A stretch of DNA of 64,000 bases, taken from positions 1,399 through 65,398 of the forward strand of contig JAYVIJ010000043.1 of the NCBI GenBank assembly GCA_043770315.1, in the 5' to 3' direction. A program made the translations under genes and the position numbers. This document shows, in pieces, positions 7,092-45,806 of this stretch. This DNA comes from Candidatus Altimarinota bacterium (lineage in GTDB: Bacteria > Patescibacteriota > Gracilibacteria > BD1-5 > UBA2023). Numbering within the stretch: position 1 is the stretch's first letter; the number at the start of each line of letters is the position of its first letter. The notes under the pieces were generated by a model, which had not been told where the DNA came from, ran no database searches, and saw nothing but the letters and a program-made list of their open reading frames with translations.

Positions 7092-10000
7092 TTAAGGCTG
7101 ACATCTCAATGTTGCAATTCACCTTCTACCTGGTGCACAGAGTCCACCGCACCAATCTTGAGCACCAGCCAACATAGAATCTCCCGCTGGAGAACAGCTC
7201 GTACCCACATAATCCTCATAACCAGTAGAATTATTTCAAAATGAGACTGTTCCATTTAGTCTACATGAACAGCTTTCTGTTGACCAATAATTTGCTACTG
7301 GTGCTACATCACAATTCGCTCCACTCCATCCACCACTACAAGTATATCCACACTGAAGTCATCCAGCAGTCCATGCTTGTCCGACACTTGTTGGAGCATT
7401 CGCTGTCACAGTACAATGTCATGCAGCGATACATGCAGGACTTGCAGCACAGCTATTTGGAGGTGCTATCCAACATGCATCAGCAGCAGCTTTTTCTATA
7501 GCAGTTCCTGAACAGAGAATCGTATAGTTGGCTCATGCCCAAGGAGTATGGGGCTCACAAATAGTCGTATCTATGAATGGATCACAATCGAGCACAAATT
7601 GGTTATAATCATCGATACTGGTATCCAGTTTCTGGTTATGTACGATCACTCCATTGGCAAGATAGTTATGATTTGGCTTGAAGAGATCATCAGTCTCACC
7701 AGTATCATGGATGCCTGATACATGGAGATTATATACAGGGACTACTTTTTTCTCTACGGTGATATGCTTTATTGGTACAATAGTATTGGTAGTTCCATCT
7801 TGGAATGAGAGAGATTCTCCGGCGATCCATCTCTTATAGATGTCTTTCGCAGCTACATATCGATCATCTTTCGGAAGATAGATTCGATGGATATGATTGG
7901 ATGTAAGAGTCTGATCTCCATACTCGAATGTATAGAGCGTCTGGATTCTCTCCTCATGATGGATAGCTTCAGTGACAGGACGATCGACATAGGTTTTGGA
8001 TATTTCATCATAGGTCTTCACGAGTTCTCCTACTTGGATATCTTCGATCGACTTCGTCTTCCCTGAATCAAGGGTGACTTGTGTTCCTGCGACGAAGCAT
8101 CCATAATCCCAAGTGATAGTTGGTGGTACTACAGCAGCACAGGTGAACTCTCCTCGAGTTGGTGATGGATCTATATCAGTACAAGTTGCTCAGCCACGAC
8201 CACCACAGCTTGCATTGAATTTTCCTGGTTGAGTCGTAGAAATTGCATAACTTGGAGATGTACTTCAAACAGAGAGAGTATCAGTTTCAGTCACCCAAAC
8301 TATAGTATGCACAACTTCACAGTGAGGGAGTACTGCTGCACTACAGCTCAGGGCTCCACAATTCCAATTATAGGTATTATCAAATCCATTTATATCCACA
8401 TCTGTCTGAGCTCCTCAAGTACAGGCAGCTGCCCCTACAGGATATTCTATAGACCCTGTCGTCTGAGCAGTACCACAAGCATCAACAGTAAGTGGTGTAC
8501 ATGAACCTGAACCCACGATAGTTTCATATGCTATATTTCCAAGTACAGGATCTCCATCATAACATCGCATTTGCACCGATCCTGTAAATCCAGGATTAGT
8601 ATTATTGATAGTGACCCAAGGACCTATACCATTATCTAAAATAGGTGATAGTACTGGCATTGTTGATCCACATCATGGTCACCAGTTCTCAGTAATACAT
8701 ATTCCACCTCCGCCTGGACTTCTGCTAATCACATTACTCCATCCACTATCTCCATTTGTATTTCTAGCCTTTACTCTGAAGTCATAGCTTGTACCATTTG
8801 TGAGTCCTGTGACATTTGCATTCGTGGTAATGCTCACTCCGTCAGCGAATACGAGCCAGATAGCAGAGAGAGTCGGCTTGTATTCTATGATATAGTCTGT
8901 CACTACCTCTGCAGGAGCCATCCATGAGAGAGAGACAGAAGCATTTCCTGCTACCCCACTGAGAACAGTAGGAGCAGACGGTCCAGTAGGAGCACAATCT
9001 GGCATTGCAGCCATTTCCGCAGGAGTTTTGTAATATACGAGTTTTCCATTACAACTATTATATATAGCTGATCCTTGTGATGGTTGGTTAGATTGCCACC
9101 ATACAAGACCTCCAGGAGCAGGGCCATTTGTATCGACGAGGCTAAGTTCAGCATTTCCATAAGGGAATCCGACACACTGATCATCTGTCCAGCCACTCGG
9201 AGCATCTTTACATGCCCCAACTGGATTTATAGGTGTAGCGCTAATAATATTACTCGGTCCACTGTCCCCATTTCCATTCCTTGCTTTTACTTGGAAGTCA
9301 TAGCTCGTACCATTCGTCAGTCCTATGACATTCGCTGTTGTACCTGTACCGACACCGTCATTGAAGGTAAGCCAAATAGCTCATGCAGTCGTCTTGTATT
9401 CTACGATATAGTCAGCTATTATACCAGACGGAGCAGTCCACGAGAGTGCGACAGAAGCATTTCATGCGACTCCAGTGAGACCAGTAGGAGGTGAGGGAGG
9501 GAGTGCAGGACATACTACCTGAGCATCGACACTACATCCGCCAAAGACTGCGAACTCTTCTGTATCGAGTGTGAAGCGTCAAGTAACAGGAAGAGAATTG
9601 AGTATACTATCTCTATAGAATCAGCCAAGTGTAGCTTTTGCACCTGCAAGTTGATCACAAGTTGCATCCCATGATACATTCCCATCAATCTCTATTTGTG
9701 TTTTTTGGGCGGGAGTGATATATCCACTTGCTGTCCAGGCAGTAAGCGCAGATTTAAAATTATTCCAACAAGCAACATTCCAACCTCAAGCCTGCTCATG
9801 TGCAAAACAACTAAATGTTCCACAATTTCAACCTACAGGAGCTATCTCACAGTTCACACCACTATATCCAGGATTACAGGTAAATCCACAATTTGGAGAG
9901 TTTCGTGACCAGTCTTGATTGGCGCTTGTCGGAGTTCATAAATTGGTCGTACAGCCGATTCCGTCACAGGCAGGAAGTGTAGATGAGCAATGTGGTATAG

Positions 10001-10892
10001 CAGTACATGAACCTCCATTAAATATCCATTCTACAGCAGTAGTCCCGACGCTCACATCACTATCGACACACTTCCAAGTTACAGATCCTGAGTATCCTCC
10101 TACAGTATTCATAAGGGTGATGGTAGGCCCTGTAGCCACTTGGTTATCACTGATAGAGAATCCAGCAGGGATGAGTGCGCTACAATTTCCGCCTTGCCCA
10201 GATCATGACCATGTTTCTGAGTAACTCATACAACTTGAAGCACCAAGTGGAGCACAGGTTGGACCGCTAAAGCCAGCATTACATGTGTATTTACAATTTG
10301 GGCCTACTTGAGTCCAAGCTTGCCCTATACTTGTCGGAGTTCCAGTTGTGAGGGTGCATCCTGTATATCATGTACATGCTGGTGAAGCAGCACAGGAGTT
10401 TCCAACAGGAGGAGTACTACAATCAATCCCAGTAAATCCGCCAGTACAAGTGTACTTACAATTTGGACCGATCTGAGTCCAAGGCATATTGGCTATAGCA
10501 GGAGTGCCATCCACAAAACTTGCATTCGCATATGCTGGACGAGCAGCACAAGTAAACGCTGGGGGGAGAGGTGGTACAATAGGTGATCCACAAATTACGG
10601 AGCCATCAGCATTTACTGATAATATATACCCAGCACCACAGTTTCATATAAGTCTTTGGTAATAATTCGCAGGCTGATTATTCAATCGTGTCGAGTTTAC
10701 TACTTGACCGCTTTCGAGTCCAGTGAGTGGGGATACTCCAAGCATCCTCTCAAGATACATTGTGAATTCTCAGAGAGTAGCCGTAGGAACTGCTGCTATA
10801 AGAGTAAGGTAGCTCACAGAGAAAAATGCTATGAGAAGTGAGCCTCACAAGATGAGAATTGAGAAGAATTTTCTCGTAAATGAAGGACGCAT
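7092..10892 (-). CDS. 1266-aa membrane-anchored cysteine-rich surface protein: EGF-like repeats, 2x FN3, internal Hint/BIL domain, Cys-rich C-terminal region
   Basis: One frame is open from ATG 10890-10892 to TAA 7092-7094 (all triplets checked for TAA/TAG). N-terminal TM anchor. Repeats of the type GQAWTQIGPNCKYTCTGGFTGIDC. Two FN3 units (...SLSWMAPAEVVTDYIIEYKP...YDFRVKARN). Hint domain from CFVAGTQVTL to NGVIVHN. Confidence 0.8.
7635..8099 (-). other. Hint (bacterial intein-like, BIL) domain inside the 7092..10892 CDS
   Basis: N-terminal block Cys-Phe-Val-Ala-Gly-Thr (Cys codon 8097-8099). C-terminal block VYNLHV...NHNYLANGVIVHN (Asn codon 7635-7637), followed by Gln. About 155 aa with no endonuclease insert. 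Confidence 0.75.
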
Positions 10893-10944: not shown

Positions 10945-12204
10945 TTACGGACAAGGGATTGGTGTGGTCGGTCCAGAGTAGCAAAATGGTCAAGCAATAC
11001 AACTATCATCTGCATATCAAGACTTTGAACATTTCCAGTGATGATTTTCTCCATTTACACTATACCTATCTCAAGTAGAAAAGTTACTTCATGCCTTGAG
11101 GGCTCCTCCATTTATACATGTATTCGTTATTCCAGTACACATTGCAAGGGTCGGGAGAGATTTATTTGCACTACAAGTTGGAGAAGCCCCTCATCATGAT
11201 CATACACATTGCCATATCCAAGGACCATTTGGAAAGCCGCTTACCTCAAGGGGAGAGCCGGTAGTACATACACTTGCACTTACTGAAGCCCAAGTATATG
11301 GACCAGGGAAACTTCCACCATTATAGACAGGGTTACATGCTCCATTTACTACGACACAAGCTCCAAGATTGCATGCTTGAGTTGTAGGTTGAGGAGTATG
11401 ACAGTTGTCATAACTACATGATTGGGTACGGCTTTGGGTTCATGGCCCACATGAGGTATTACATCCTGTCCATGCTGTATAGGTATATGGACCAGTATTG
11501 ATACAACTTTGATAGGGATTTGTTCCACTCAGGACAGTATTCGTACAGGTTCGATTTTGCATGAGGGATACACATGTAGTCGGAGTATTCGCTGAAGAGG
11601 CAGAGTATGCTACGCGAAAATCTCCATTGGGAATTACACCCCAAGGATTGACATTACAGTCACAGCTAATTCCTGGGTTACAGGTTCGTACATCAGCGGG
11701 TTTTACCAGTGCTGGTACTGCTGCGATACATTTCGCATCGGGGAATATATTCCCGAGATTATCCGTACAGGTGACTGTGCCAGTCTGACTTCCAGATGCT
11801 GGTGTGGTTCCACAGAAGCCATTCGTCGGTACACATGTGCCCCATGTTGTTGGAGCATTCCAACGATAGATGGTGTTACATACAGTCGTTCCATCAGCAT
11901 TTATCTTCACGATAGGATTATCTACCCCGCAAGTACTATTTACCTTTCTCTGGTATTGCACAGGATCTACTCATCAGAGCTTATCTGTATTTTTGACCTT
12001 TCCATCTGTAGTAGCGATATTCGTATCTTCGAGAAGATTTTGGAAGTACTGTGTGAATAATGTTCATTTGGGTGAAGTCCCCCCAATCCCATTGGCAGGA
12101 TATGCTGCAGATGTCATCCATGATGAGGATATCTGAAGGATCATACCGATGCAGAGACCGATGATGCCTACACGTACAAATGAAAAGATAGAAGAGTGTT
12201 TCAT
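10945..12204 (-). CDS. 419-aa membrane-anchored cysteine-rich protein with thrombospondin type-1-like repeats
   Basis: ATG 12202-12204 to TAA 10945-10947, read through TGA. N-terminal TM, then NTDKL-G-G-VDPVQYQRKVNSTCGVDNPIVKINADGTTVC. YTAWTGCNTSCGPGTQSRTQSC matches the W..C..SCG.G.Q.R...C pattern of TSP1 repeats. Confidence 0.7.
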
Positions 12205-12234: not shown

Positions 12235-12507
12235 CTAGTTTGCACAAGAGAGACCTCATGCGTTTACACCATTTGCCCATTGCCCGACACAAGTATTTGG
12301 TATGAGTCTCTGGTATTGGGCTGCATCAAAACCATCAAGTTTCCTCGAATCTCGGACAGTACCATTGCTCTGATATATTCGAGGGAAGAGATCATAGTAG
12401 ATGCCTCCGCCAATTGCTGAAGTAAAAGGTGCAACAATATGCATCCCGAGAGCAATGCTACATCCTAGTACTATACCGAGGAGAGAATGATAAATATAAG
12501 TTTTCAT
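12235..12507 (-). CDS. 90-aa membrane-anchored mini-protein (TM helix plus conserved Cys module only)
   Basis: MKTYIYHSLLGIVLGCSIALG...SRKLDGFDAAQYQRLIPNTCVGQWANGVNA-G-GLSCAN, ending at TAG 12235-12237. This is the same module that opens 10945..12204, 7092..10892, 32292..34016 and 34546..34845. Confidence 0.6.
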
Positions 12508-12533: not shown

Positions 12534-15158
12534 TTAGCGTATTGGAGCAAGACCAGGAGGTGGATCAGTGACGATACGACTATCATATTCAATGATAAAT
12601 GATGCTTTTTTATCATTTGATGAGAGATTTGCTGCGGCTCTTGCTAAAGTCGCTGGTGATATACCACGATAGTATCTAAAATGTTCAAAGTCATATCGAA
12701 GCGGTATTTTGCTATTGCTATTACAATTATCGATTGATTGAGGACAGACAGGAGCTCCTGGTATGGATGCTCATCCGATCGTATTGAGGGAGATAATACT
12801 TCCAAATACATACAGTTGCTTATCGAGGACTCAGGTTGCATTCGAGAGGTCAGTATAGTAAGGCGTTCCACTTCCTGGATCACCAGAGAGAAGAGATCCT
12901 TCAGTGATAAGAGAAGTATCGAGGCGAAAGACGGTATTTTTGACATAGATATTTCCACCATTTCCATTTGCATCTTTGAGTGCGATGAGGGCACGAGGGA
13001 GGACTTGCGCATTCGGAAGGATATAGTCTGCACCGATGGTGATATCACCATATACGACTATAGATGCTTTATTATCGAGGAGAGCAATTTGGGCAGCATT
13101 GATATTTTGACTTCCAGAATATACAATCAAGTTGGTTCATGTATATGTAGAGGCATTGTACGTAGCATTTCTTGTGAGAATACTGATATTTTTGCGTATT
13201 TCATTGAGTATATTTGCGCGAGTGACTGAAGCATTTTTCGGTTGATACATTTCAGTGATGCTTTGGTATATCTTATCACCGCTTGATTGCCCGAGTATTT
13301 TCACTCATCCAGCAAATACGCTATCACTTTGAACAAGAGTACCTTGAGAAAGACCCTGATACGTGATATCTTGTCAACCTACTCACCCGACTCTATAGGT
13401 GATAACAGAGTCATATGCGTAAGATTGCTCTATGTCTACCATATTGACTCGACGAGGCGTTACAGTGAATGAGTGGATATCATTTCCACTCGTCGGTATC
13501 GATATCATCGATGCTCGACCTCACCCAGCGCTGATCCCACGATCACAATATGGACTTCCGTATGATCATCCACTCGGAAGATATGCAAAACAGTCCTGAA
13601 TCGGATTTATACCCGTAGTGTCCTGGAACGTAGAGGCGACATTCGCGACTCATCCCACAGTAGTGACTATAGAAAGTCCATGGATGATATGGGCATTGCT
13701 TGATGCTCCGCTTGGGTCAGTCTTTTGTATAGCACCTGTGATCGTCGTCGGACGTCCTATCTGCCCAGAGAGTCCGATGATACCAATGACTCTATAGAGA
13801 GGAAGGAAGGTGATATTCGTCGTTTGGAACTTCCCAGTGATATCAGCTGAGTGAGCATTTGGTCATGATACATCGACACTCACCGTTCATATACTTATAT
13901 TATTACCAAGAACATTTGGATCTCATGCAGTAGTAGGAGCGTAGCTTGATAAAGAAAAGCTTCGACCAGGAGTATAGTTGTTAGTAAAGGGAAGGGGAGT
14001 AGCATTGGGATTAGTCTCTGTGATTGAGTCATAGAAGCGATATGCTTTATTTGTCTGACCAGCGACATCACCTCTTCCATACGCAAGAGGATTGCCAAAT
14101 AGAGTATTGGTGACCGTAGTACTATTGATTCATACACTATATGTGATATTTCTTCCTATCGCTCCTTCCGCTTTTAGAGTATTCCCATATATATCACGAA
14201 GATTGATTGTGGCATTGAATTTTTGTACGGCATCAGCGAACTTTGAACCGAGAGGGCTTGCAAAATCTCATCCTGCCCAAGTCGTTTTTGGTGTGCTTCC
14301 ATCTGGACAAAGAAGAGCATTTGGGAGATTTGCTGGGATACAAAAAGATGTGAGGAGCGTCCCAGCGGTGACGTTCGCCGCTTGAGATATATTTGCTGCA
14401 TAGACTTGTATCGTTCCTGTGGTAGTCGAACCAAATGGGTCAATGATAGTATAGGTATACTCTGTCGCGAGAGAGAGATCTACATTCGGAAATCCACTTG
14501 ATCATTGATTATAAATATAGGGTCGACATAATGTGATATATCATACAGGGCAGAGTAGCATTGTTATAGTGGCACTTCCGCGTGTAAGTATCCATGCTGG
14601 CACATTTGCCCTGAGTGTTACTGAGTTTGTAGCAAAAGTATAGTCGGAAAAAGGTGCAATATTTGTAAGGGGTGCACCATTGAGAGTTACAGGCATTGCC
14701 CAGAGTTCTGAGTTAAATGGGATTGATCCCACAGTAGTACTCGATGCATTTCAGCTGATGAGTCAAGTGGATTTTGTATAGGTGATACCTTGTCACTCTA
14801 GCTCGATCCAGCCTGCCATACTACTCCAAATATAGCCCCTGAGTGGACATGATATAGCAGCCCCAGTCATACAAGCAACATCGAATTTTGCTTCACTTCC
14901 AGCAACTCCATGGTCAAATTGGGACCATCCTATCGCGTCGGTCCATACATCACCATGAATGATATACCCAGCATCAATACGTACTGGTAAAGGAGAGGGT
15001 CATACCCAAGGGGTTCCCCCCGAAGAGAAGAGAAGATCAGAAGGATTTCCTCCGTAGAGGTAGGTTGTCGCACTTGGAGAATACGCAGCAAATATTTGTA
15101 GAGGAGCTATTATAAATAGACTGAACAAGAATATGATGCGAAAAAGAAAAGATGACAT
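12534..15158 (-). CDS. 874-aa secreted protein with the C-terminal 'NGNGGNIYV' module (paralog of 29154..31484)
   Basis: ATG 15156-15158 to TAA 12534-12536, single frame read codon by codon. Signal peptide MSSFLFRIIFLFSLFIIAPLQIFAAY. C-terminus ...LKDANGNGGNIYVKN...QLYVFGSIISLNTIGG...FIIEYDSRIVTDPPPGLAPIR. Confidence 0.8.
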
Positions 15159-15186
15159 ATCTCGATAATAATAAATTTATATACTT

Positions 15187-16239
15187 TTAGGATTGAAGCT
15201 TAATGCTCGCAACACAAGATTCACGCAAAGAATCATCGACAAGAACATCACATTGGCTTATGTCTTTTGATTCAATAATCTTTTTGATGCGAGTACGATC
15301 AAAACATGATGTCTTAAGTGGACTCTCAGTAAGTTTCTCACAAAGTCTAGGATCTCATTGATTCGTAGCATCGAGAAATATCAAACGTTCTTCTAAAGTT
15401 ATAATTTCTTTTTTACATTGTTCAGCGAGAGAGGTATTTGTGATTTTTTCACAAAGAGAAATATCGCTCTCCTTCTTTGCTCGTGAGTAAAGAGCGGTAT
15501 CTTCACATCGTATTTTTAGAATTTCATCACTCATTTTTTCGCATATTCCAGAATTGGGACTTTCTCCAATTTGAGAAAGTATCTTATAATCATTTTGTAT
15601 GACGATACGGCTTTGACATTCTCATTGGACATCTTTATCGGCGAATTCTTTACAATCTTTTTCTGAAAGTTCTCACTTTGCTGACTGTTTCATCTCGAGA
15701 ACGACAGATTCCGTTCTCTGTTTACATTTTTCTTTCAGACTTATATCTGTTATTTTTTCACAAGTTTCATCATCTTGCTTTGTGCTTCCTGAAAGAGATA
15801 TTTCACTCATAGCAGAAGAGAAATATACATTATTTCTACAGGTATCTCCACTTGTTCCACTGAGGGTCTCACAAATAAGAGGATCTTTTTTTTCCGAAGC
15901 GAGAGAACTCGTAACTTGATTCTCGCAGTTTTGTTTCATTTCATCAATCTCAATTTTCTTGCATACAGTGACATCTTTAGTTCTCGTCGCTTCATTAAAA
16001 AACTCTATTCCCGCAATCGTAGCTTCTTTATTCTTTTCTGCTTCTTCCTCACTTTTTTTCATCGCTTCGATAAATTTCTCATCCTCAGGTGTTATCGTGA
16101 GAACTCTTATATTAGCAGCTTTTGGTGGTACTGACGGTGGAAGTATTTTTTGCTCGTTTGACGGAGAAAAATATATCCATACAGCAATGGCGATACCAAT
16201 GATACCACAAACAAGACTCATCCAAATCGATTTGCTCAT
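15187..16239 (-). CDS. 350-aa membrane-anchored protein built of Cys-pair repeats (family with 18951..19592 and 28117..29091)
   Basis: N-terminal TM (SLVCGIIGIAIAVWIYF), then about nine units of the form D...C-x(7-12)-C, e.g. DISLCEKITNTSLAEQCKKE and DPRLCEKLTESPLKTSCFDR. Ends TAA 15187-15189, 28 nt upstream of 12534..15158. Confidence 0.75.
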
Positions 16240-25380: not shown

Positions 25381-25455
25381 TGGTTGCGGAGGTGTGAATC
25401 GAACACACGACCTCAAGGTTATGAGCCTTGCGAGCTACCACTGCTCTACTCCGCG
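25381..25455 (-). tRNA. tRNA-Met(CAT), initiator-like
   Basis: CGCGGAGTAGAGCAGTGGTAGCTCGCAAGGCTCATAACCTTGAGGTCGTGTGTTCGATTCACACCTCCGCAACCA. It has a C1/A72 mismatch, A73-CCA and strong resemblance to E. coli tRNA-fMet. The anticodon stem has only two G-C pairs next to the loop, not the usual three. Confidence 0.85.
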
Positions 25456-25612: not shown

Positions 25613-25689
25613 TGGTGCCAATGAGTGGACTCGAACCACCGACCTCGGGGTTATGAATCCCGTGCTCTCACCAGCTGAGCTACATTGGC
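25613..25689 (-). tRNA. tRNA-Met(CAT), elongator type (a lysidine-modified tRNA-Ile2 cannot be excluded)
   Basis: GCCAATGTAGCTCAGCTGGTGAGAGCACGGGATTCATAACCCCGAGGTCGGTGGTTCGAGTCCACTCATTGGCACCA. Normal G1-C72 pair, CAT anticodon, and the GTAGCTCAG..GGT.AGAGCAC D arm seen in elongator Met. Confidence 0.85.
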
Positions 25690-25708: not shown

Positions 25709-26686
25709 TTATAGCGAAAAACCGAAACTGTCAAGAGTATTTTTGAGAGTTTTCTGAAAATCAGGAATTTCTTCGAAAAGAAATGAATATTTTTTCTCGT
25801 GGAGAGAAAGAATATTTTGTATATTCCAGGGTTTTCATGTATTTATATTTGTGTGAAGTTCTCGATAAGACTGATCTCCCTTGATAAAATCCAAAAATAA
25901 GTCACTTTCATTCTTATTCCATCAGCCAATTTCTTTGTACATATCCCAGAGAAAAGTTTTTTTTGATCGGAGGCCTCGTGCTGATGTTATCTCTCCACGT
26001 AATACCGAGATATCTGCAAGATCGATGAGATCCCAAAAGTCATCTCGTTTCATCCAAGGAAAATATAAGATATTCTCCTGTAGATGACTTTCTCTAAGAG
26101 GATTTCCGATAAGAAAAATAAGCACATTTTCAGGGATATTTCTCATATCAAAGTGAGTGAGAGTTTCTTCATAACAAAAAATTGGTATCCAAATTTTCAG
26201 AGAGAGATCTCAGGGGAGATGAATATCTGAGAGCCAATTTTCTCGATGTCGAGTGATACCTTTATACTCCCAGATACCACCCATTCCGCAAAGGGGTGAG
26301 TAAGAAAGCTCACGTATTGGTCTTTCGGAAGATGAGAGGATATGCTCAGTATTATGAATTTTTTGATACCAAGGATCAAATGAAAGATAGTTGATACGGA
26401 TAACACTTCTTCATGCGGGGATATCCCTAAAGTTTATATTTGCATGTAGTCAGAGGATAACGAGATTTGAGCATTTTTTTAGATCATATTTTTCTTTCTC
26501 GATGATAATAAATGGTGGAAGTGAGCATCCGCTTTTTTCGAGAAATGATTCCATCTTCACAGGAGCATTCGTCACAATATTCCAAAAAATAGGGAGACGA
26601 TTCATCATGAGAAATTCGAGTATCCAGCCCATATCACCATAGTTATCGATGATATCTATAAAGATGTCCCCACTTTGGATTTTCAT
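25709..26686 (-). CDS. earP: EF-P arginine rhamnosyltransferase EarP-like
   Basis: N-terminus GDIFIDIIDNYGDMGW (compare DIFCxVVDNYGDIGV). INYLSFDPWY (compare NLEYLSAEEW). FPWMKRDDFWDLIDLADISVLRGEITSARGLRSKKTFLWDMYKE (compare LPFMxQDDYDRLLWxCDLNFVRGEDSFVRAQWAGxPxxWxIY). 325 aa joined through TGA. Confidence 0.75.
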
Positions 26687-27332: not shown

Positions 27333-28055
27333 ATGGACTTTCTCTCCCAAAAAACGTCTTTTGACACATATATCGGAGTCAAATCAGATCCAAATAATCA
27401 CGAAAAATACCTTTTTCTTCGGGCTCAAAAGTATATCCAAAAAATAACTTGGATTCCTGGTATTCGTATGATAGCTGTGGTGAATTCACTCTCTATGTAT
27501 GCGACACATCCAGACTCAGATATCGACCTTTTTATTATAACTGCGAAAAATCGCATGTGGATAGTGCGAGTCTGTATAACCTTCTTTTTTTGGTATTATG
27601 GCGTTTGGAGAAAAGGGGAGGATATTGCTGAGAATTTTTGCCTTTCTTTTTTTATCGAAGAGGAGGAGAGCAATCTTTCTTCTATAGCTTTCGATGATGA
27701 TATCTATCTTTATTTTTGGATCTACTATATGAAGCCGATATATACAGAGTGAAGTATCTATGAAGATTTTCTATGAGCCAATACTTGGGTCGACGTGCCT
27801 TTCGATATACGACTCGAAAATATGCGATACCTTTTACCTTTACCAATTATACCTTCATCTCATTTCTTTCTCACTCGATGGATCCTGACATGAGTCAATA
27901 AGGTTTTTCAGTGTATCTGAGGATGGAAAGCTCGTTCCCAATTCCAAAAAAAAGGTTCTCCAGAAGGAGTTATCATCACTTCCCGAATGTTAAAATTTCA
28001 TGATAGCGATAAGAGGGAGGAAATACGAGATTCTCTCGATCTTCGGGATGAGTAA
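27333..28055 (+). CDS. Hypothetical protein with a nucleotidyltransferase-like N-terminal motif
   Basis: 240 aa joined through TGA. VNSLSMYATHPDSDIDLFIIT resembles the GS...DxD minimal nucleotidyltransferase fold. The remainder is unrecognised. Confidence 0.55.
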
Positions 28056-28116
28056 AATGATGGTTGCTTTTCTCCTTATTTTTTTTAAGATACTTATATA
28101 TTTGCTTTCGTCTTCT

Positions 28117-29091
28117 ATGAAAAAAATTTTTTTTGGCATACTCATAATCTTTTTGCTTCTCGGATGAATCATATATTTTATTTCTTGACTTTCAGATACT
28201 CCAAAATGACAAGATAAGTGGACTTTTCGTACATCCCAAAAGGAAACCCTAAGCTATGAGGACAAAATAAAACAAGATGAAGAAACAGCAGTGCACGATA
28301 AGGGCATCTATAATAACGCACTAAAAACACAAGATACTATTCTTTGTAAAGATATCATAAATACAGATGAGAAAAAACGATGTTATGATATGATCGGTGC
28401 AAGTGTCGCCCTCAAAGAGAGAAAAAAAGAAATGTGTGATACTCTCAGTAATTCTGGAATCGTGGAACGATGTCGAGATAATGTCTCATTTTCGCTCGCA
28501 GAAAAATCATGAGAAAAAACGATGTGCGCTCTTATTATAGATGAAAATCTGAGAACTCAGTGTGAAGAGATGATCGATACCAAATCTTTCTCTCTTCGAG
28601 TTGCTTCGGGGACGATCGATACAGCTTTTTGTGGGACACTTGCTGGAAGTGTCTGAGATCAATGTCGAGCTCAAGTCACGAGGCGAGACGATAAAAATAG
28701 CTATAATAATGCTCTTTCTCAAAAAACTCTCGAAAGCTGTGATACTATAGAAAACGAGGTGCTTCGGTCTCAATGCCGAGATACAATCATATTTGATATG
28801 GCTATTAAACAAGGAGATACGGACTTGTGTGCGAGTATTTCCAATAAGTCACGATCTGAATATTGCGAAAAATCACTGAATGTACGCAATGATACTATTC
28901 TCTATGGATCGATCGTAAAAGAAGGCGATATTATCGCATGTGACACACTTATATCTCTTGAACTCAAGAACCGATGCCATGATGTAATACTCATAGCTCA
29001 AGTACGATCGAATCAAGATTCAGCCCTCTGTGAAAATCTCTATAATACTGGCATGATAAGTAGTTGCCGAGGATTGATACGATCGAAATAA
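28117..29091 (+). CDS. 324-aa membrane-anchored Cys-pair repeat protein (paralog of 15187..16239)
   Basis: N-terminal TM (FFGILIIFLLL-G-GIIYFIS). Repeats DTILCKDIINTDEKKRCYDM, KEMCDTLSNSGIVERCRDN, DTDLCASISNKSRSEYCEKS and DSALCENLYNTGMISSCRGL. Confidence 0.7.
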
Positions 29092-29153
29092 ATTTAGATG
29101 AAGAAAGTGTGCTAAAATTCGCTTTTTCTTCATATTTATGCTAGCATAGACGT

Positions 29154-31484
29154 ATGATGTGGTATTTTTCTACGATCATCTCGCTGTTTTCTATTGTATG
29201 GGGATTTTTTTGATGTATTTCATCCTGAGAAGCAGCGACGACATATTCACCAGGGAGTACTATCGCTATGACTGGATCCAATGGCGAAGTATTTTTTGAT
29301 GTTACAGATGATCTTTTCGGATATCCTATACCGAGGCCCAGTTTCGATATGATGCTTGGAACTTTTTCTTGAGCGTTCTATCTTTCTTGAGCAGGTTGGG
29401 TCGATTTCTTGACGGGAAGCTATAGTGTTGCTCTCGATTGCGGCGCTCAGTCTTATGATGCACTTACTCTCCCTTGTACCCTTTCATGAGTCGCATATGG
29501 TGAGATAGTAGGGGATGTCCTATTTGATCGACAAGTCCTATTTGATCCTACGACATGACGACTTTCAGGTACCGCTTCTACCTATATCTGAGTCTATGAT
29601 TTTTCTGGTATCACCCTCCCACTCCTTCCTGCGAGTTTCGTCCTCGGCAATAGAGTCACAGCCGATAACGAGAAAGATCTCTCACTCTCGGGTATGAGCC
29701 TCTATGGAGATACCGTATGGAATATATTTATGGAGACGTCGCCAGGAGGTATGAATATCTCTTATACAGTCGGTCTACCTACCGACCTTTCTCATGCAAC
29801 GACGTACTATGTTGAAATACACGATCCAGATGGAGGAGTGACGACGATCGATGATTTTGAAGTAGTTGCTGATCAGCCATCGAGCGTTCTCTACTCCGCG
29901 ACACCGACTATTCGAGCAGATTTTTGTACGAATAATTTTCCTTCACTCCTTTGTCCAGATGGAACAACTTTGAAAGCTATGACTCTTGATCGGACAGAGA
30001 CCATCACCCCGATGATTGCCAACGGTGTCGATATGTATAACTTTGTTCTGAAGCTTCGAGATCGATATGGAAATGAAGTACGAGAAGGAAGTATAAAAGT
30101 GGATTATACAGATATGATTCGTACGATTCAGGCAGATCCACTCAAATATAATAATTTGGTTATAGATGCTTGTTCATTTGGTACCTGTGCTATCATCTCT
30201 CAGGGTGATCTTCAGAATTTCTTCGATGGTGTACTTACGACAGGAGACGTCATCATAGGTATGAGTGATATCAATTTTGATATAGCGAGTATTGCTCCAT
30301 CGACCCTTACGGATACCATCACTCTCTCAGGAATACTCTATACTGATACTTTTTGAGTAAGTCATGATGTGACCGATCCGACATGGAGAGCGCCACTGGT
30401 GTTTGATCCATGGTATACGACGAGTATACTTCCGATTCCATCGATCGTCGTTTGAAGCGTCGTGGACTTTACGACGAACTATGCACGCACGACTTCAGCT
30501 ATACCACCCAATACTCCTACGGCGATATATGATATAGCAATCGGTTCCAATAATCCTGCAGCATTTACGGGTTTTGTATCAGCTATAGCCCCATCATGCA
30601 CTAAATATTATCTTTCATCGGGACTAGATGAGTGTGATTGGGGAGGTACTCCAGATCCTGTCATGATCTCGACGGAGTCACTCAGTTTCTCTGGTATCTA
30701 CTGATATGGTGGATATGAGCCACCACCAGAGAACATCAACTATAACTCGTATATACGATATAGTGTGCTTCATCCACTGCTTGGTACGAATGTCGTATCA
30801 TACTATCCGAGTGGAAATGGAAGTCTCGGAATATCCAATCCTGGAGCTATCCGTATGAAAATCCTCGGACAACACAATCTCCCTGGACTTTCCTGAATCC
30901 AAGAAAAAAATATTGCTGATATCTGGAACACTCTCCAAAAAAATATCGCACTGATGTCACGCAATCGTACGACATATGCTGATGTTCCTTATAGTGTCAC
31001 AGAGGGTAATATCTCGATATCTGATACTGACTTCACATCGACATCACCAGAGAAGCGGACGATCGTATCTCTCGGGTGAGACATCACGATCACGAGCGAT
31101 ATCATAGAAAAAACTTCACCTATAGCTATCATCGCCCTTTCTGATACAGATGGAAATGGTGGAAATATCATCATCGATCCAAGTGTCACAGATATCCACG
31201 CTACTCTCCTCGCAGAGAGGGTAGTGTCATCTACCGGATCCAATCAACTCTATATCCATGGAAGTGTCATATCTCATAATACCACGAGCGATAGCACCTG
31301 TCCATACTATATCTCTCCATGTGCCAATCCTGAACTGTATAATCTCGAAAATCTCCGCAAAGATTTCATCATCACGCCAGGCAGTCTTGCATCTTCTCTC
31401 TCTGGGAAATACCCCAATATCCCACTTATCATCGAGTATGATGGAAGAGTCATATCTTATCCACCACCGATTCTCGAACAGTAG
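29154..31484 (+). CDS. 776-aa secreted protein with the C-terminal 'DGNGGNIII' module (paralog of 12534..15158)
   Basis: Single frame from ATG 29154 to TAG 31482-31484, read codon by codon. Shares NFPSLLCPDGTTLK, LKLRDRYGNEV, KNIALMSRN, SDTDGNGGNIIIDPSVTDI, QLYIHGSVISHNT, YNLENLRKDF and LIIEYDGRVISYPPPILEQ with its paralogs. Confidence 0.8.
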
Positions 31485-31546: not shown

Positions 31547-32149
31547 TTATGCAGCTGTTTCTTCTGGAGTCTCTGTCTTTTTTATTTCTGGACTAGCTCC
31601 CGTTGTAGCAGATCTACGACGACGAGCCGCCAGACCTACCACACCAAGCCCAAGTGCACCGAGTGCAAAAGTCGAAGGTTCAGGGACAGCACTGATGTGA
31701 GCATTGCCTCGCATCGATATATCGCCGAATCAAGAGTTATCCCAGCTACCTACAGTATAGTTACTCGATGATAAACTGTTAAGTCCATTACTCATATTTA
31801 GGCTTCCAGCTTCGAAACTATAAAGACTCGTAAATATTAAATTTGGAAATTCAACTAACATATCAAATTTTGTATCTGTTCACTCATACATCGCTTCAAA
31901 ACTCACCTGATATGGATTTCCTGCGGTAGGAGCTCAGAGAACACCAGTCCCAGTGAAGAGTGTATTTCCCTGATTATCAGTAAATATATATTCTCCTATT
32001 CCGCCAGTACTTGTTGGTCAACTAATATTTCCTTTGACAGAAATAGAGTCAACTCATACTGGAAGCGTGACTATACCTGCATCTGCCGTTTCTGCTCCTA
32101 CAAGAGCAACAGCAGCAAAAGCTGTAGCTGCTACTCTTCTGAGAGACAT
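31547..32149 (-). CDS. 200-aa secreted protein with a PEP-CTERM-like C-terminal sorting signal
   Basis: GGAGG Shine-Dalgarno 5 nt upstream of the ATG. Signal peptide MSLRRVAATAFAAVALVGAETADA. C-terminus SAVPEPSTFALGALGLGVVGLAARRRRS plus a 20-aa tail. Five in-frame TGA. Confidence 0.7.
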
Positions 32150-32291
32150 ACCTCCACCTTTTCTTAGGGAAATATTACCAGTAGCAGTATCAATACTTCA
32201 ACGATCAAGAGGTTTCATATATAAAAAAGAATTTAGAATATAAATGATCTACAACAAGTATATTTTATATTTTTAATTATATAAGTCAATA

Positions 32292-34016
32292 CTAATTCCA
32301 TATTTTGATAGATTTTATCTTCTTTCAGATTTTAAAAAGTCAGCCTACATTAGTACCAATGACGAACTTATTAACATTCGCAAGAGGTGATATTCTATAT
32401 GTATATATCTTCATAGTAGCATCTCGAGTAAATAATACTCCATCTGCTATTCCTACACCAGGTCAGTAGGGAAGTGTTCTAGGAACTCCACTATGTTTAT
32501 AATAATAGTTTGGTCCTCCTGAGTCATACTTTAAATAGTTTCCATTGTCAAGATCGATGAAATACTGAATTGAGCCAATATTTATAGGTTCAGTGAGTTC
32601 GATTTCTATAGTTTTTCCTGTAAGAGTACCTCAAGAAATAAATGTTTCAATATCACCATGATTATATTGGAATAATTGAAGATAAAGACTTAAATCAATT
32701 CATTCTAGTGACATTAAAAATACCCCATAGTTTTCATTTTGTAGAGATCTTATAGTTCCATTAGATCTACGAATATCAAGAGTTGGAAGTGATGAGGGGC
32801 TTGTGGTCATAGGAAGACTATAGTTTGCTATAGCGAGAAGTCAGTGATCCTGACATCCGTAGCGTTCATTCCAGTAGATTTTTCCTATCTCACAAAGACT
32901 ATTTGCTTCTTGTATACCCGTTGCTGTCAGTATTCCAGCCGAGTTATCGGGTATTGTTGTCGCGATTTCATTATTGAAGATCGTTTTTTTAGCCAGAGTC
33001 ATGGTCATACCTGAGAGTGATGTTTTTCGGTACATATACTCAATATCTTTTTCTGTATTTTTCTTTGCCCACGGGGAGCTTATAAATATAGTGTCTTTCG
33101 GCTTTATTAGAGGAGAAGGGATGGTATTCCCACATCACCCTGGAGGGATCACATAGCTCTTGGTCTTTGCGAGGTTCGAGAGAGGTCTGTATCACCCATC
33201 AGTTTTCCTACAGGCGATGACAGCCCCAGTGTTCGTCGTGGTATCGATGATAGCGACTTCTGTCGGATAGAGTCATGGTGTGCGTGGTATCGTCCAGCCG
33301 GTACCTGACCAGACTATAGATCATATGGTATTTCCTGTCGATACCAGTGAGATGCTCGTTCCACGGACTCAGGCGATGATCTCATGAGTTCCGACACTAT
33401 ATGATCCCGTCTCGGTGAGGATACGTCACCAGAGAGAGCCATTCTCGAGGAGGGCTGAGGCGATACTCGTCCCACCAGAGAGATACCCTATATCGAATGA
33501 CACGACGGTATCTCCATCGAGACGAAGTATCGATAGATCAGAGAACGCGATCGTCATAGTACATCCAGGAGGTGTTTTGAGGATGTCTCATGACTTCAGG
33601 GTATGTCCTGTAGAAGTAGGATTGGTCGAGCTTCCACTTGCATGATAGATCGTAGAAGTACTACAATCTTGACTCTCGATCTTTCAGAAGTCCCCGAGAA
33701 AAGTCGAGGTTGATCCGCATATAGGTTTATTATTCGCATCGATCCCCACCCATTTATCCGTTCAGACACAGTTATTTGCGGTGAGATATCCGCTAGCAGT
33801 GGTACCATCGAGCATGAGCGTATTTTCTATCACTCATGTCCCCGTATAGGTCTCGATATCACTTCCGATAAGTCTTGATATCGCTGATCCGATACTCCCG
33901 CTTCCACTCGGGATTCGTGGAAAGAGTGTTGTATCAGGAAAGAGTGCTGGTACGAGAGCATAAGCGACCCCTATGAAGAGGATGATCGATATGAAGATAG
34001 GGAGGATTTTGCGCAT
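32292..34016 (-). CDS. 574-aa membrane-anchored protein: conserved N-terminal Cys module plus a FecR-like domain
   Basis: Read codon by codon from ATG 34014-34016 to TAG 32292-32294. TM ILPIFISIILFIGVAYALV. Module YLTANNCV-G-TDKWVGIDANNKPICGS. FecR-like TMTIAFSDLSILRLDGDTVVSFD...SYSVGTHEIIA-G-VRGTSISL. Confidence 0.7.
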
Positions 34017-34022
34017 ATTTTA

Positions 34023-34070
34023 GAAGTATAGAGGTCTGGAAGTATAGAAGTCTGGAGGTATAGAGGTCTA
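34023..34070. repeat. Three tandem 16-bp repeats
   Basis: gaagtatagaggtctg / gaagtatagaagtctg / gaggtatagaggtcta sit directly upstream of the 34016 start codon and downstream of the four-helix-bundle gene. Confidence 0.8.
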
Positions 34071-34105
34071 GGGCAATGAGAGTAAGGGATATGAAAAACT
34101 TTTGG

Positions 34106-34459
34106 TTATCATTTATTCCTTAGGGAAGTGATGAGGCTGTTGAGCATTTTGTGTATTTCTATAAGACTCTCATTGAGATGAGTATAGCTATCTGAGTCTA
34201 TATAGTCAATATTTCTTGCTATCAGAAGTTGTGTCTTTGCTTCCGCAAGACTTCATCTTGCTATTATAAGGAAGCGTATAAATTCAGTAGTGCTTTCTCT
34301 CTCGCTTCATTCGGCAATATTACTAGCAATACTCACTACTGATCTTTGAAATTGATCTTTGAGTCAGAAATCTCGAGAAAAATTAGAATTTTTTGCTATA
34401 GATTGATACATCAATACTGCGATATCGATAGATTTTTTCCATACGTTGAGATTTTCATA
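34106..34459 (-). CDS. Four-helix-bundle protein (23S rRNA intervening-sequence protein family)
   Basis: 117-aa ORF ...SIDIAVLMYQSIAKN...FQRSVVSIASNIAE-G-SERESTTEFIRFLIIAR-G-SLAEAKTQLLIA. The conserved NIAEG and ARGS glycines are TGA. The family N-terminus (YENLNVW) is encoded just upstream in another frame. Confidence 0.75.
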
Positions 34460-34485
34460 GTATGCCATAACAGTAATGTTATATG

Positions 34486-34547
34486 TCTTCTAGCCCTCTA
34501 GTCTTTTATTCTACTAGTCCTCTTGACTTCTAGCCCCTAGTCTTCTT
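34486..34547. repeat. CTAG/TAG-rich direct repeats flanking the four-helix-bundle gene
   Basis: gtcttctagccctctagtctt ... gacttctagcccctagtcttctt. Contains gacttctag, the reverse complement of the ctagaagtc word seen at 40025-40051. Confidence 0.5.
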
Positions 34548-34845
34548 ATCTACACATGACATTTCCACTTGTATCGAATCAGTAGATACATTTTGTAGCA
34601 GGACAAGACTGACTTGGTGCGACTTTCTGAAAATTCGAAGCAGGGAGTCATCCGAGCTTATTCGCATTTGCGACCGTGCCATCTCCCGCATAGGTGAGAA
34701 CTTGGTCTGGCGTGATACCGAGAATCTGTCAGAGTATTTCTGCGAATTTGCCCCCGCTCGCAGCATTCACGATACCAGAAGATATAAGGAGTGTGAGGAT
34801 ACACCCGAGAGTGAACATGATACCTCGAAGAAAATAGGAGAACAT
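34546..34845 (-). CDS. 99-aa membrane-anchored mini-protein (TM helix plus conserved Cys module only)
   Basis: MFSYFLRGIMFTLGCILTLLISSGIV...NANKLG-G-LPASNFQKVAPSQSCPATKCIY-G-FDTSGNVMCR, ending at TAA 34546-34548. The start codon is chosen at the TM helix. The track ORF 34729..35064 extends further upstream. Confidence 0.6.
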
Positions 34846-34950
34846 AGTGGAATTTTTTAAAAAATTTTTACTTTTTTTGTATGAAAAATGAAGCATTTTT
34901 CGGGAGGGATTTTTGCTTTCAAAAGAGAAATCTGATACGATAGCAATAAT

Positions 34951-37008
34951 ATGCAAATAAAGAAAAATCTCAAACATATTTTGATAGTCTCTTGTATCAG
35001 TCTGGGATTTATTTTTGGAGCATTGAATTTTTTTGGAAAAAACTTTACGCTTCCACTGACTCATTTTTTTGTATATAGAGACAATATTACGCTATTGAAT
35101 TGGCTCTATATGTATACATTTAAAGCCTCAGTAAAGGATATTGTTATTATAAAAATCGATGATACAACGCTCAATAGTCTCCAGGCATCTTCAGACTTAA
35201 AGATGCTGCGCATACCAAAATCAATCTATCGAAATCTTATCGAAAATCTTGAATCGGTCTGAGTAAAAGGGATTGCATTTGATATCGTTTTTCAAAATGC
35301 AGATACAGAGAGGGTTCAAGGGGCAAGTACTACAGAAGAAGAGGAGTTTGCAAAAACACTCATAAAATACCCGAATATAGTCATATCTACTACAGAAAGT
35401 GGTGATGGAAAATGTTTTCAAGATAATACAGGAGCATATGTGACTTGTGATTGAGTACCTCGATCGGTATATAAAGATGCAAAACTTTGATATATTGGGA
35501 TTGCTGAATCTGGCGATAATAAATTTGCTACGAAAGATATTTCGAATATTTTTGAGAAATCTCTACTCGAGGTAGATACACTCAGTCTTGCTCTCTACAA
35601 GACCAGTATTGATATTCGGCCAGTTCCATTTATAAAAAATGAAAGATATTTGGTTCCATTTTTTGGATGACCAGGAGTATATCCCAGTATTTCTTTGAGT
35701 GAAGTGTTGAAGATGCCGAAAATCCAAAGAGTTTCGAATTTTGCTGGGAAGTATATATTTATCGGCGAATCAGGAACAATGATACATGATCAATTTGTAT
35801 CTCCAGTGACAGGGAGTGCCATGGATGGTGTCGAGTCTCATGCACATTTTCTCGATGGCATACTCCAAGAACGATATCTGAAGGGATATACTCTTATAGA
35901 TCCGATTTTCTTTGCATTTGTGATTTGGCTTATCGTGACGATGAGTATCATTTACATTCTCTCACCGAAACAAGTCGGGATATTCGTTGCATTTTTTCTG
36001 ACTATTTTGATCGTCTGGATGAGTCGATATCTCTATTTTCGATATGCTATCGTGGTCGAGATCCTTCCACTTCTCCTTGCAGGAAGTATATTCACCTTTC
36101 CACTCACTTTTATCTATCGATTCTTCATCGTCGATCGAGAGAGGCGTATGATCATCGGAGCATTTGCACACTATCTCGATCCTGAACTCGTGAAAGAGAT
36201 CGCTGATAATGCAGACTCGATCAAGCTTGGAGGAGAGTCTCGTGAACTCTCTGTACTTTTTTCAGATATTGCAGGATTCACTACGATCTCAGAAAAAACC
36301 TCAGTGAAAGAACTCTTCATGCTTATGTCGAACTATCTCTCTCGTATGACGGGGATACTGATCACGCAGTGAGGAACCCTCGATAAGTATATCGGAGATG
36401 CAGTGATGGGATTTTTCGGAGCACCACTCATCCAAGAAGATCATGCGAAGCGAGCATGTCAGACAGCCCTCGATATGAGAGAAGCACTTCCAGCATTCAA
36501 TGAATGGCTCGAGACTCAGTCACTTGAGCCTATAGACTTTCGAGTGGGAATCGGGTCAGGAGAAGTAATGGTCGGAAATATCGGATCAGAAGATCGATTT
36601 AACTATACGGTCCTCGGAGATACCGTCAATCTCGCATCTCGACTGGAAGCAATATCCAAAGAATATGGAACACACATCATCGTATCTGAGACGACGTATA
36701 CGATGACGAAAGAAATATTCCTCTTTCGGAAGCTTGATCTCATCACTGTCAAAGGGAAAGATAAAGCTGTAGGGATATACGAGCTTATCGCAGATATTCG
36801 CGATAAGACGATCGACACTATGAAATATGAGCGGTATGAGCAAGCATTAGAGTACTATATGCAATGAAATTATCTCGATGCTGGAAAACTCTGGGAATCA
36901 CAGCTTCAAGAAGATCCACCCTCTCGTATCATGGCACACAGATGTCTCGATATCCTCAAAGGTGTTCTCATCGTCGAAGGAGGTGTGTATCATATGACAA
37001 AGAAATAG
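34951..37008 (+). CDS. CHASE2 sensor domain-containing class III adenylate/guanylate cyclase
   Basis: 685 aa, three same-frame fragments joined through TGA. N-terminal TM plus a periplasmic-type CHASE2-like region, then three TM helices. Cyclase motifs LSVLFSDIAGFT, GDAVMGFFGAP and RVGIGSGEVMVGNIGSEDRFNYTVLGDTVNLASRLE. Confidence 0.88.
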
Positions 37009-41664: not shown

Positions 41665-41819
41665 TGAAGAAGAAGTGAAGAAGGAAAATGATATTGACAA
41701 TCACTATAATAAATTTATTATTATTTCATCTATATTCGAGATATAAAAGAATAGCATTTTTTGCAAAATATGAAGATATGTGGTAGGGTAGTATGGTAAT
41801 ATATTCTAATTTTCATTTT

Positions 41820-44800: not shown

Positions 44801-45806
44801 CGCTGAATATGCCAAAAATCGTTCTGCATTTGCGAATCGACTTGTCGAACATGCTGGACTCAAAAAGGGAACCCCTGAAGCACAAAGACTTATAGATGCA
44901 CATACGGTTCTAGCGAGTGAACTTACTTTTGAGACTCAGGGGGAAGTTGCAAAATTTATAACTGCATCTGAAAAACTTCCTCAAGCAAAAGATATCTCAG
45001 GTTTGGTTACATTCTCTCAGATTAGTCCACAAGGAAAATTGACCGTTGGAGGTCTCAAATGATTCCGCGGAGATATTAATATCGTAAATCTCACATCAGA
45101 TATCACAGATAGCACTATGAAAGATCTCTTGATCGCAGATGCGAGAAGAACTGGAGTTTTGCAGTCGAATATGGACAGTTCGAATGCACATATCAAAAAT
45201 ACTATCAAGACAGATTCTGCCCCACAATTCGATCTGATTACTTATAAGGAATTTCTCCGTACAGGGACTCTTCCAAAGTGATTTGAGTCAGTGTCAGTCG
45301 TCTCAGCTCCACAATACAAGATGGCACGATGCGCTCTTCCATGAGCTGTGTGTTTCAATGATGTAATGCTCCTCGGGTATCCAAAAATCGCAGCAAAACC
45401 TGCAAATCCAAATCTTCCTCCCGTTCCAGAGACTCCAGTAGCGATAGATCAATCTCCGACACTCAGTACTCTCCGTACAGGTGATCGTACAGCAAATGCT
45501 GGTAGTGATACAGAGGCAACACTCGGATTTAACTTCTCTCGAGTGATCAATACAGTAACCAATCAAGTCATCGATAATGTCACGAAAGAAATAGTAAACC
45601 AAACTGTAGTTATCCAACCTCATACAGAACCTGAAGCTCCTCCAGTAGCTCCTCCATTAGTACCTCCTCGGACAGAGCCTGCAGCTCCTCCAGCAGTACC
45701 TCCAGCAGTACCTCCAGTAGCTCCTCCTCCAAGTACGATTCCATCAACTCGACCTCGTCCTGGTACTCCTACTCCACCCCCTCCTTCTCCAACACCAGGA
45801 GGATAG
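41820..45806 (+). CDS. 1328-aa hypothetical protein with a proline-rich C-terminal tail
   Basis: Frame 0 is open from ATG 41820 (alternative ATG 41793) to TAG 45804-45806. All gaps between the seven listed fragments were read codon by codon. No signal peptide seen. The tail reads EPEAPPVAPPLVPPRTEPAAPPAVPPAVPPVAPPPSTIPSTRPRPGTPTPPPPSPTPGG. Confidence 0.75.

Follow-up and report, generated by a model that had tools for sequence, protein, structure and literature searches.

A shared N-terminal module and its stand-alone mini-gene copies in putatively exported proteins of a Gracilibacteria bacterium

We analyzed a 64,000-nucleotide stretch (hereafter the window) of contig JAYVIJ010000043.1 from Candidatus Altimarinota bacterium (assembly GCA_043770315.1), in which five genes, all on the minus strand, encode proteins that open with one and the same N-terminal module. 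Two of these genes, located at 12235..12507 and 34546..34845, encode a leader and the module and nothing more; their products are called mini1 and mini2 in the following. The three others, at 7092..10892, 10945..12204 and 32292..34016, carry the module at the N-terminus of much longer chains. Locus 1 encodes three module chains in a row (mini1 and the two long proteins P0003 and P0005), and locus 2 encodes two (mini2 and the long protein P0004). A first-pass annotation of this DNA had described the module as a transmembrane helix followed by a two-cysteine motif, and we examine here what this module could be and what the mini-proteins could do.

The five open reading frames (ORFs) are found intact once TGA is read as glycine, and genetic code 25 was thus used for reading frames across the window. 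Translated with table 11, the region breaks up into short, fragmented ORFs, and this reading was abandoned in favor of code 25. The choice is justified because the genome encodes a tRNA with anticodon UCA alongside tRNA-Trp(CCA), because the TGA codons of mini2 coincide with glycine columns that are at least 90% conserved (G66 and G89 of alignment A3), and because the relatives bear the label Candidatus Gracilibacteria / Altimarinota. Public gene calls for the lineage (P0006, P0157, P0159, P0012, P0015) stop at TGA or render it as tryptophan ('GWLFWEILAKIL'). A word-indexed protein search with mini1 returned solely its own table-11-truncated copy, P0006, of 83 residues. This mis-reading of TGA therefore hides the family from word-based searches.

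The mini1 gene (P0001) encodes a 90-residue precursor made only of leader and module (residues 31-90, at 12238-12417 on the minus strand) and ending in LSCAN. The mini2 ORF (P0002) is open up to 35064, and the start at 34845 (M74) fits the conserved signal peptide of the orthologues; the resulting 99-residue precursor consists of a predicted signal peptide ending in VNA|ASGG and a 71-residue mature module with three cysteines (34549-34761, minus strand), and ends in VMCR. Both ends are those given in the first-pass annotation, and the module does open the three long proteins under code 25. P0003 (10945..12204, or 12225; 419-426 residues) consists of a leader, the module (11872-12075) and a Cys-rich region with weak TSP1-like matches. 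P0005 (7092..10892; 1266 residues) consists of a leader, the module (10584-10787), Cys-rich repeats, two FN3 domains and a Hint domain. The latter, of Hint / PT-HINT type, lies near the C-terminus (residues 930-1086, window 7092-8100) and is followed by Cys-rich sequence. P0004 (32292..34016; 574 residues) has a predicted signal peptide ending in AYA|LVP, a Pro-rich linker, the module (33711-33911), a FecR domain (PF04773, residues 146-238, 25.1 bits for a cut-off of 24) and a C-terminal region of no known family.

In all five proteins, the hydrophobic leader is followed by about 25 residues with a short helix and then by the stretch DGTVxN..KL[GD]G..A..[YF]Q...C-x(8-14)-G-x3-C. The literal motif first written for the family is fully satisfied in only two of the five, the three others departing from it at one to three positions, but their homology is unambiguous by hidden Markov model (HMM). 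Indeed, when every code-25 ORF in the six frames of the 1.37-Mb assembly was searched with an HMM built on the five 45-residue cores, this HMM scored its own members at E-values of 3e-22 to 3e-18 and the next match at about 1, and no sixth copy was found. A regular-expression match in contig C42 was a chance occurrence, as the HMM did not recover it. The module family is thus real, it has exactly five members in this genome, and all of them lie within the window; the claim that a common module is reused at the N-terminus of several proteins holds, in the form of this five-member family.

We then considered whether the mini-genes are genuine. Each of them shares its strand with a long family member whose gene follows directly downstream, and such adjacency is seen in nearly all loci checked. 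In relatives, the upstream member of each module pair is, once translated, always an ORF of about 100 residues that stops 0-2 residues past the last cysteine, and this position of the stop is kept in about 20 mini clusters at 50% identity. The ratio of nonsynonymous to synonymous substitutions (dN/dS, Nei-Gojobori) of mini2 orthologues is 0.08-0.22, versus 0.23-0.39 for the adjacent long gene. Likewise, mini1 compared with its orthologue in genome G008, which has an identical end, gives 0.096, the value for its neighbor P0003 being 0.236. Only 27 nucleotides separate the mini1 stop from P0003, which has its own leader and module, and in the insert-free loci L023, L026, L027 and L031 the long gene begins 6-34 nucleotides after the mini stop. 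No terminator-like site was found between mini and long genes. The stand-alone copies are hence conserved genes in their own right, as their low dN/dS and fixed C-terminal end attest.

The mini2 type has a feature of its own. Its mature form contains exactly three cysteines in 25 of 26 proteins (C-x4-5-C-x11-12-C), where the long paralogues have two. The FecR-type long proteins possess eight conserved cysteines, and this even number leaves a covalent disulfide between them and an unpaired cysteine of mini2 unsupported.

The module is not confined to this genome, contrary to what would have undermined the initial proposal. Of 41 related genomes, 17 have it, among them 10 of the 11 that belong to the same genus, and it nearly always takes the form of two matches 300-900 bp apart. 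Within the class, the full-length module, i.e. helix plus hairpin, is restricted to one family of Gracilibacteria, which are tiny and depend on hosts, and matches in other families span the hairpin half only. The mini1 type is limited to two genomes, this one and G008, where mini1 is followed by the P0003-type and then by the P0005-type gene, with no cyclase gene. A tree of the modules leaves mini1 out of the core mini2 clade and places it, with weak support (83/85), together with the P0005 type; because of this placement, the stand-alone form may have arisen twice.

At locus 2, the mini2 gene lies divergently to a plus-strand gene (34888..37008) assigned by Pfam to CHASE2 plus adenylate/guanylate cyclase (CHASE2+Guanylate_cyc), which forms with mini2 and the module-FecR gene a triad conserved in synteny. 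Only 42 bp lie between the start codons of mini2 and the cyclase gene, and the orthologues have 26-60 bp there. With start codons so close, each promoter must sit inside the other gene, which suggests that the transcription of the two genes is coupled or mutually interfering. The order of genes is conserved around mini2: RRF, Mfd, the CHASE2-cyclase on the opposite strand, the mini-gene, an optional small insert, the module-FecR gene, a gene for a PEP-CTERM-like protein and, in most cases, two convergent genes for uncharacterized surface proteins. The pairing of a FecR protein with a CHASE2 cyclase is itself conserved in more than 10 loci. In the window, the PEP-CTERM-motif protein (31547..32218, minus strand, 223 residues; PF07589, E-value 3e-8) follows P0004, and it is found directly downstream of the FecR-type long gene in several relatives too; this sorting signal is unusual in a lineage of the Candidate Phyla Radiation (CPR). 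The convergent pair, which encodes proteins of 363 and 776 residues (28000..31484, plus strand), is conserved in synteny in several relatives.

The comparison of these loci links the mini-gene to the module of its partner. In G022 and G024, the genes for the cyclase and the FecR protein are direct divergent neighbors with no mini-gene between them, and there the FecR protein has a plain leader and an S/T-rich linker but no module. Among the eight family members examined that lack the module, five are without both genes and have no P0004 homologue at all. In G248, a mini is present and the long protein has a diverged but recognizable module. G006 has duplicated the whole triad (L036, G006:C18:3326-7409), the second copy comprising a CHASE2-cyclase (51% identity), a mini and a FecR-type long protein (33% identity). 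Across about 30 genomes of one family, the presence of the mini tracks the presence of the module on the FecR partner, the exceptions being G023, where a 5-kb insert splits the pair, and G019. This covariation argues that the minis, which the first-pass annotation had suggested might cap, prime or compete with the larger proteins, act through the shared module.

The spacer between mini2 and P0004 contains an additional gene (34106..34468, minus strand) of the 23S-rRNA-IVP type, predicted to form a four-helix bundle. It is bracketed by 44-nucleotide imperfect inverted repeats (34021-34064 and 34489-34532, 75% complementary) built of 8-nucleotide tandem units (TAGAAGTC/TGGAGGTA). In other genomes, the same spacer holds an IVP homologue with 36-59% identity (L021, L025, L009), other small ORFs (L022, L024) or nothing (L023, L026, L027, L031). 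The insert (34021-34532) resembles a mobile cassette that favors a particular intergenic site, and the IVP-type gene is an optional passenger outside the triad system.

Upstream of mini1, on the same strand, lie genes for a secreted protein of 874 residues (12534-15158) and for a membrane protein of 350 residues with Cys-pair repeats (15187-16239), with 26-nucleotide gaps and no terminator. These two (12534..16239) are paralogous to the pair at 28000-31484 of locus 2, with E-values of 8e-33 and 4e-27.

What is then the nature of the module? The hydrophobic core of the leader varies freely in both the mini2 and the FecR-long families, while the small residues at positions -3 and -1 are conserved. 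The conserved leader ends read A-x-A|A[SN]GG in mini2 and A-Y-A|LVP in the FecR-long proteins, the alanine at -1 being present in at least 90% of the sequences. Because this A-x-A site is conserved, because its pattern is of the signal peptidase I (SPase I) type and because the genome encodes SPase I (Peptidase_S26), what was called a transmembrane helix most likely represents a Sec signal peptide that is cleaved off, cleavage being judged here by conservation. A hydrophobic leader does open all five proteins, as first described, but it reads as a cleavable signal and not as a permanent anchor; similarly, from the initial alternative of a membrane-docking or export module, export is retained and permanent membrane anchoring is not. 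One protein could behave differently. Mini1 and its G008 orthologue display a lipobox-like [IV]LGC (ILGC in mini1) and LspA is encoded, so that mini1, and that protein only, may be lipid-anchored. Neither the mini2 type nor the long proteins have a conserved lipobox, and the leader cysteine of mini2 is not kept (it is missing from P0158).

The second half of the module turned out not to be private to the family. An exhaustive search of 1.84e9 protein representatives with a profile of the five copies yielded 477 representatives. Among the best 150 of them, 22 are of mini type and 16 carry a full module at the N-terminus of a longer protein, while more than 100 are long proteins with 2-22 internal matches restricted to model positions ~26-68, these repeat proteins being retrieved at E-values down to 1e-29. 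Their repeat has the consensus nAD.LDG.dss.fQrRVsGtCaaGssIR.INADGTVtCe, a median spacing of 65 residues and two cysteines about 17 residues apart. The last ~40 residues of the module correspond to one copy of this LDG/Cys-hairpin repeat, [ND]A..L[DG]G..[AS]..[FY]Q.R(V).G.C-x2-G-x2-I-x2-(I/V)N.DG.V.C, and all five copies retain the leucine, the glycine, both cysteines and the N/D-A-x-G turn. Thus, the two-cysteine motif is indeed shared by the five proteins, but, far from being their own, it represents one copy of a fiber-shaft repeat that is widespread. Since the full-length module is limited to one family and other families match the hairpin half only, the module amounts to one unit of an old repeat joined, in this lineage, to a helix of its own.

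The repeat-bearing proteins are tail-fiber-like and presumably trimeric. Peptidase_S74 is found in 11 of 65 of them, and Gp53-like_C, phage Collar, Collagen and Fibrinogen_C domains also occur. One repeat-bearing relative, P0008, gives a weak match to Bdello_MAT_N (NF053851; 34 bits for a cut-off of 60). No tandem array of the repeat was found in the proteins of the window, each having a single N-terminal copy and only non-significant matches to a second one. Neither the module nor the repeat unit has an entry in Pfam, NCBIfam or PHROGs, or in the PDB by sequence, and a metagenome scan with alignment A4 found nothing. Finally, tblastn of one repeat protein found no counterpart among cultured phage genomes, so that these data do not show a direct phage origin.

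The mature N-terminus, GG[LK]FG[DE]IL[AN]KILG, combines hydrophobicity with moderate amphipathicity: its hydrophobic moment is 0.42 versus 0.25 for shuffled sequences, and a median of 9% of the shuffles reach the observed value. The AlphaFold2 (AF2) model of mature mini2, computed as a monomer only and from a shallow alignment of 27 sequences, displays two short helices, a coil and a confident beta-hairpin (predicted local distance difference test, pLDDT, about 90) but no compact globule (overall pLDDT 79.5, predicted TM-score 0.42). Such a non-globular model with a confident hairpin is what one would expect for a unit that needs partners. When two AF2 models were searched with Foldseek in PDB and BFVD, no match reached an E-value of 0.001 or below; the best weak matches, non-significant, are small disulfide hairpins (defensin, granulin, TNFR-CRD). 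The genome encodes VKOR and DsbA-like proteins, and extracytoplasmic disulfides are therefore plausible in the module proteins.

From these data, we tentatively favor the view that the module is an export and assembly or docking unit, and that the minis are passenger-less subunits co-assembling with the long proteins. The mechanism that we infer is as follows. The N-terminal Sec signal peptide would direct export, and SPase I would probably cleave it at the conserved A-x-A site. This would expose a mature N-terminal unit of about 65-70 residues made of the helix GG.FG.IL.KILG, the DGTVxN..KLGG..A..YQ stretch and the beta-hairpin closed by two cysteines. The unit could serve for homotypic association or as a stalk element, as in tail-fiber-like proteins, so that a common module would mount different passengers (FecR-type, FN3/Hint, TSP1-like) on the cell surface. 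As the covariation and the operon structure suggest, the minis would be translated from a transcript shared with the long protein, shortly before it, and would co-assemble with it via the shared module or occupy the same docking site. In doing so, they could take up whatever positions are left in an oligomeric stalk or docking site, and so set the number of passenger heads per assembly. For the mini2 type, the assembly could be the extracytoplasmic FecR-type partner of the CHASE2 sensor cyclase.

Several observations weigh against this proposal. The AF2 models are of monomers, from 27 sequences, and the oligomer, the trimer and the mini-long interaction are deduced indirectly; the cleavage of the signal peptide is likewise read from conservation alone. 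The module contains one repeat unit where real fibers have many, and the Pfam and NCBIfam scans found no Peptidase_S74, collagen or MAT_N domain in the proteins of the window. In G019, whose assembly is 95% complete, no FecR-long partner could be detected for the mini that lies next to the cyclase. Moreover, the odd third cysteine conserved in 25 of 26 mini2-type proteins is not explained by co-assembly, since the cysteine set of the FecR-long proteins is even.

A bolder version of co-assembly, which we consider doubtful, is that of split fibers. The module would then be a hetero-oligomerization unit, a mini-chain joining one or two passenger-bearing chains of the same operon in a mixed stalk, and each assembly would display a defined, sub-stoichiometric set of heads. 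The odd third cysteine of mini2 would serve as an intermolecular link, and the triad assembly would constitute an extracellular sensing arm coupling surface or host contact to cyclic-nucleotide signaling in an epibiotic CPR bacterium.

On the other hand, one could wonder whether the mini2-type proteins are secreted peptide signals or modulators, set free once the signal peptide is cleaved and sensed by the CHASE2 domain of the adjacent cyclase, alone or with the FecR protein. If so, they would look like the FecR N-terminus because they mimic it or compete with it for one receptor site, and not because the two co-assemble. This hypothesis would account for the divergent position of mini2 next to the cyclase in almost every locus and for G019, which keeps a mini beside the cyclase though the FecR-long gene is gone. 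It would also fit a product that is small, Cys-stabilized, strongly constrained and, by prediction, secreted, and no CHASE2 ligands are known (PMC5192318). However, the mini1 locus has no cyclase and its mini lies beside two non-FecR long proteins, L024 has a mini-long pair without an adjacent cyclase, and the cyclase-FecR pair of G022 and G024 lacks a mini exactly where the FecR protein lacks the module. The mini is thereby tied to the module and not to the cyclase, and we regard the ligand hypothesis as possible but unlikely.

Somewhat less probable still is that the leader stays uncleaved, or that mini1 is lipid-anchored at ILGC, the module being a juxtamembrane stalk of type-II or lipid-anchored membrane proteins and the minis membrane-tethered stubs that occupy or organize membrane sites. 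This comes closest to the membrane docking initially envisaged. A hydrophobic segment of 20-30 residues does open all five proteins, the [IV]LGC motif occurs in mini1 and its G008 orthologue together with an encoded LspA, and the first mature helix is hydrophobic and moderately amphipathic, with a moment above that of shuffles. Nevertheless, an h-region free to vary next to conserved -3/-1 positions and a conserved A[SN]GG or LVP is the signature of SPase I, which is present, and the leader cysteine lost from P0158 leaves no lipobox in the mini2 type.

It is improbable that the minis are membrane-active effectors, bacteriocin-like and Sec-dependent or directed against a host, that would penetrate a target membrane with their mature N-terminus 'GGLFGDILAKILG', the disulfide hairpin stabilizing the peptide. 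Such a role would suit an epibiotic or predatory lifestyle, and the products are small, Cys-stabilized and probably secreted, with defensin-like hairpins among their non-significant structural matches; presumably, the mature N-terminus also resembles Gly-rich amphipathic membrane-active peptides. Yet the amphipathicity is only moderate, the observed moment being within reach of shuffled sequences, and the peptide is roughly neutral and not cationic. Furthermore, the same helix opens proteins of 400-1266 residues, the mini co-varies with the module on its long partner, and no immunity, transporter or ABC gene is adjacent, the neighbors being cyclase, FecR and PEP-CTERM proteins. None of the five proteins matches a bacteriocin family of Pfam or NCBIfam.

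Lastly, the mini-ORFs might be chance ORFs or what is left of the 5' end of long genes after disruption, as their duplicating only the 5' part of their neighbors and the truncated public call of mini1 could suggest. This can practically be dismissed, since their dN/dS is low, their C-terminus is conserved across about 20 clusters and several genera, the next gene follows too closely to leave room and has its own leader and module, and the mini2 type has its own diagnostic third cysteine.

Some other genes of the window deserve mention. An ORF at 25709-26686 partially matches the EF-P rhamnosyltransferase EarP (PF10093, E-value 3e-9, C-terminal third only) and is adjoined by two tRNA-Met genes (25381-25455 and 25613-25689). 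Further along, a protein of 1813 residues with three DUF11 repeats is encoded at 46024-51465, flanked by a protein of 1337 residues (41793-45806) with no Pfam match; both are large orphans that are probably exposed at the surface.

By sequence, the closest known relatives of the module are the uncurated LDG/Cys-hairpin repeats of tail-fiber-like proteins (Myxococcota, MEE2756004.1-type, many with Peptidase_S74, PF13884), whose consensus is matched by its C-terminal ~40 residues. The arrangement differs, however: elsewhere the repeat is internal and present in 2-22 copies, whereas here a single copy follows the signal peptide directly, with a lineage-specific helix before it, and also occurs free-standing as a 70-residue protein. 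In addition, the proteins of the window lack S74, collagen and fibrinogen domains, and the Pfam scan detected no C-terminal chaperone of the Peptidase_S74 type in the five proteins.

A parallel can be drawn with the mosaic adhesive trimer (MAT) fibers of Bdellovibrio, which combine an invariant N-terminal domain with variable tips (Caulton et al. 2024, PMC10769870). The logic is shared, with an N-domain thought to be at the cell surface, diverse C-terminal domains and a bacterium living on other bacteria. The window proteins nonetheless have no long fiber and no S74 or TNF-like tips, MAT fibers have no stand-alone N-domain mini-protein, and Bdello_MAT_N had no match in P0001-P0005 or P0013 at the 60-bit cut-off; the likeness thus remains an analogy only.

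Locus 2 may also be compared with the proteobacterial CHASE2 kinases, which have conserved LysM+FecR protein partners (COG4254; BiofilmReg operon, PMC5192318). Both systems place a gene for a secreted FecR-domain protein with an N-terminal accessory domain beside that for a CHASE2 transmembrane sensor. P0004 is the only one of the five proteins to combine a FecR domain with an adjacent CHASE2+Guanylate_cyc gene. Here, however, the output is a nucleotide cyclase and not a histidine kinase, the module takes the position of LysM (for which Pfam found no match in P0004), and an extra mini-gene for the module alone stands between the two genes.

Two other types of systems come to mind. Among type IV pilins, the small ones polymerize and the large ones decorate. 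Pilins and minor pilins are also small, with an N-terminal hydrophobic helix, a C-terminal disulfide loop and larger paralogues sharing the N-terminus. But the leader here resembles a type-I signal peptide, the loop is homologous to a fiber repeat and not to a pilin D-region, and type IV pilins could be discarded: no G|[FM]xxxE prepilin motif occurs in the five leaders or the orthologue alignments, and no pilin family of Pfam or NCBIfam matches. The SLH, CWB2 and LysM wall anchors of monoderm bacteria are likewise single modules reused on many exported proteins. They have no sequence or fold relation to the present module, however, and co-transcribed anchor-only genes are atypical among them. 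In the libraries searched, the combination of a single fiber unit, a private helix directly after the signal peptide, an obligatory mini-gene for the module alone and a CHASE2-FecR linkage was not described.

To our knowledge, the surface proteomes of Gracilibacteria and other CPR bacteria, which grow attached to hosts, are almost entirely unannotated. Our analysis defines a recognizable N-terminal module for proteins that are predicted to be exported, tied to a widespread but uncurated repeat of the tail-fiber type. The reproducible rule that a mini-gene occurs where, and only where, the partner has the module makes the hypothesis of their interaction testable with two small recombinant proteins. 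The analysis also adds to the CHASE2-FecR sensory pairing an unusual version with three genes.

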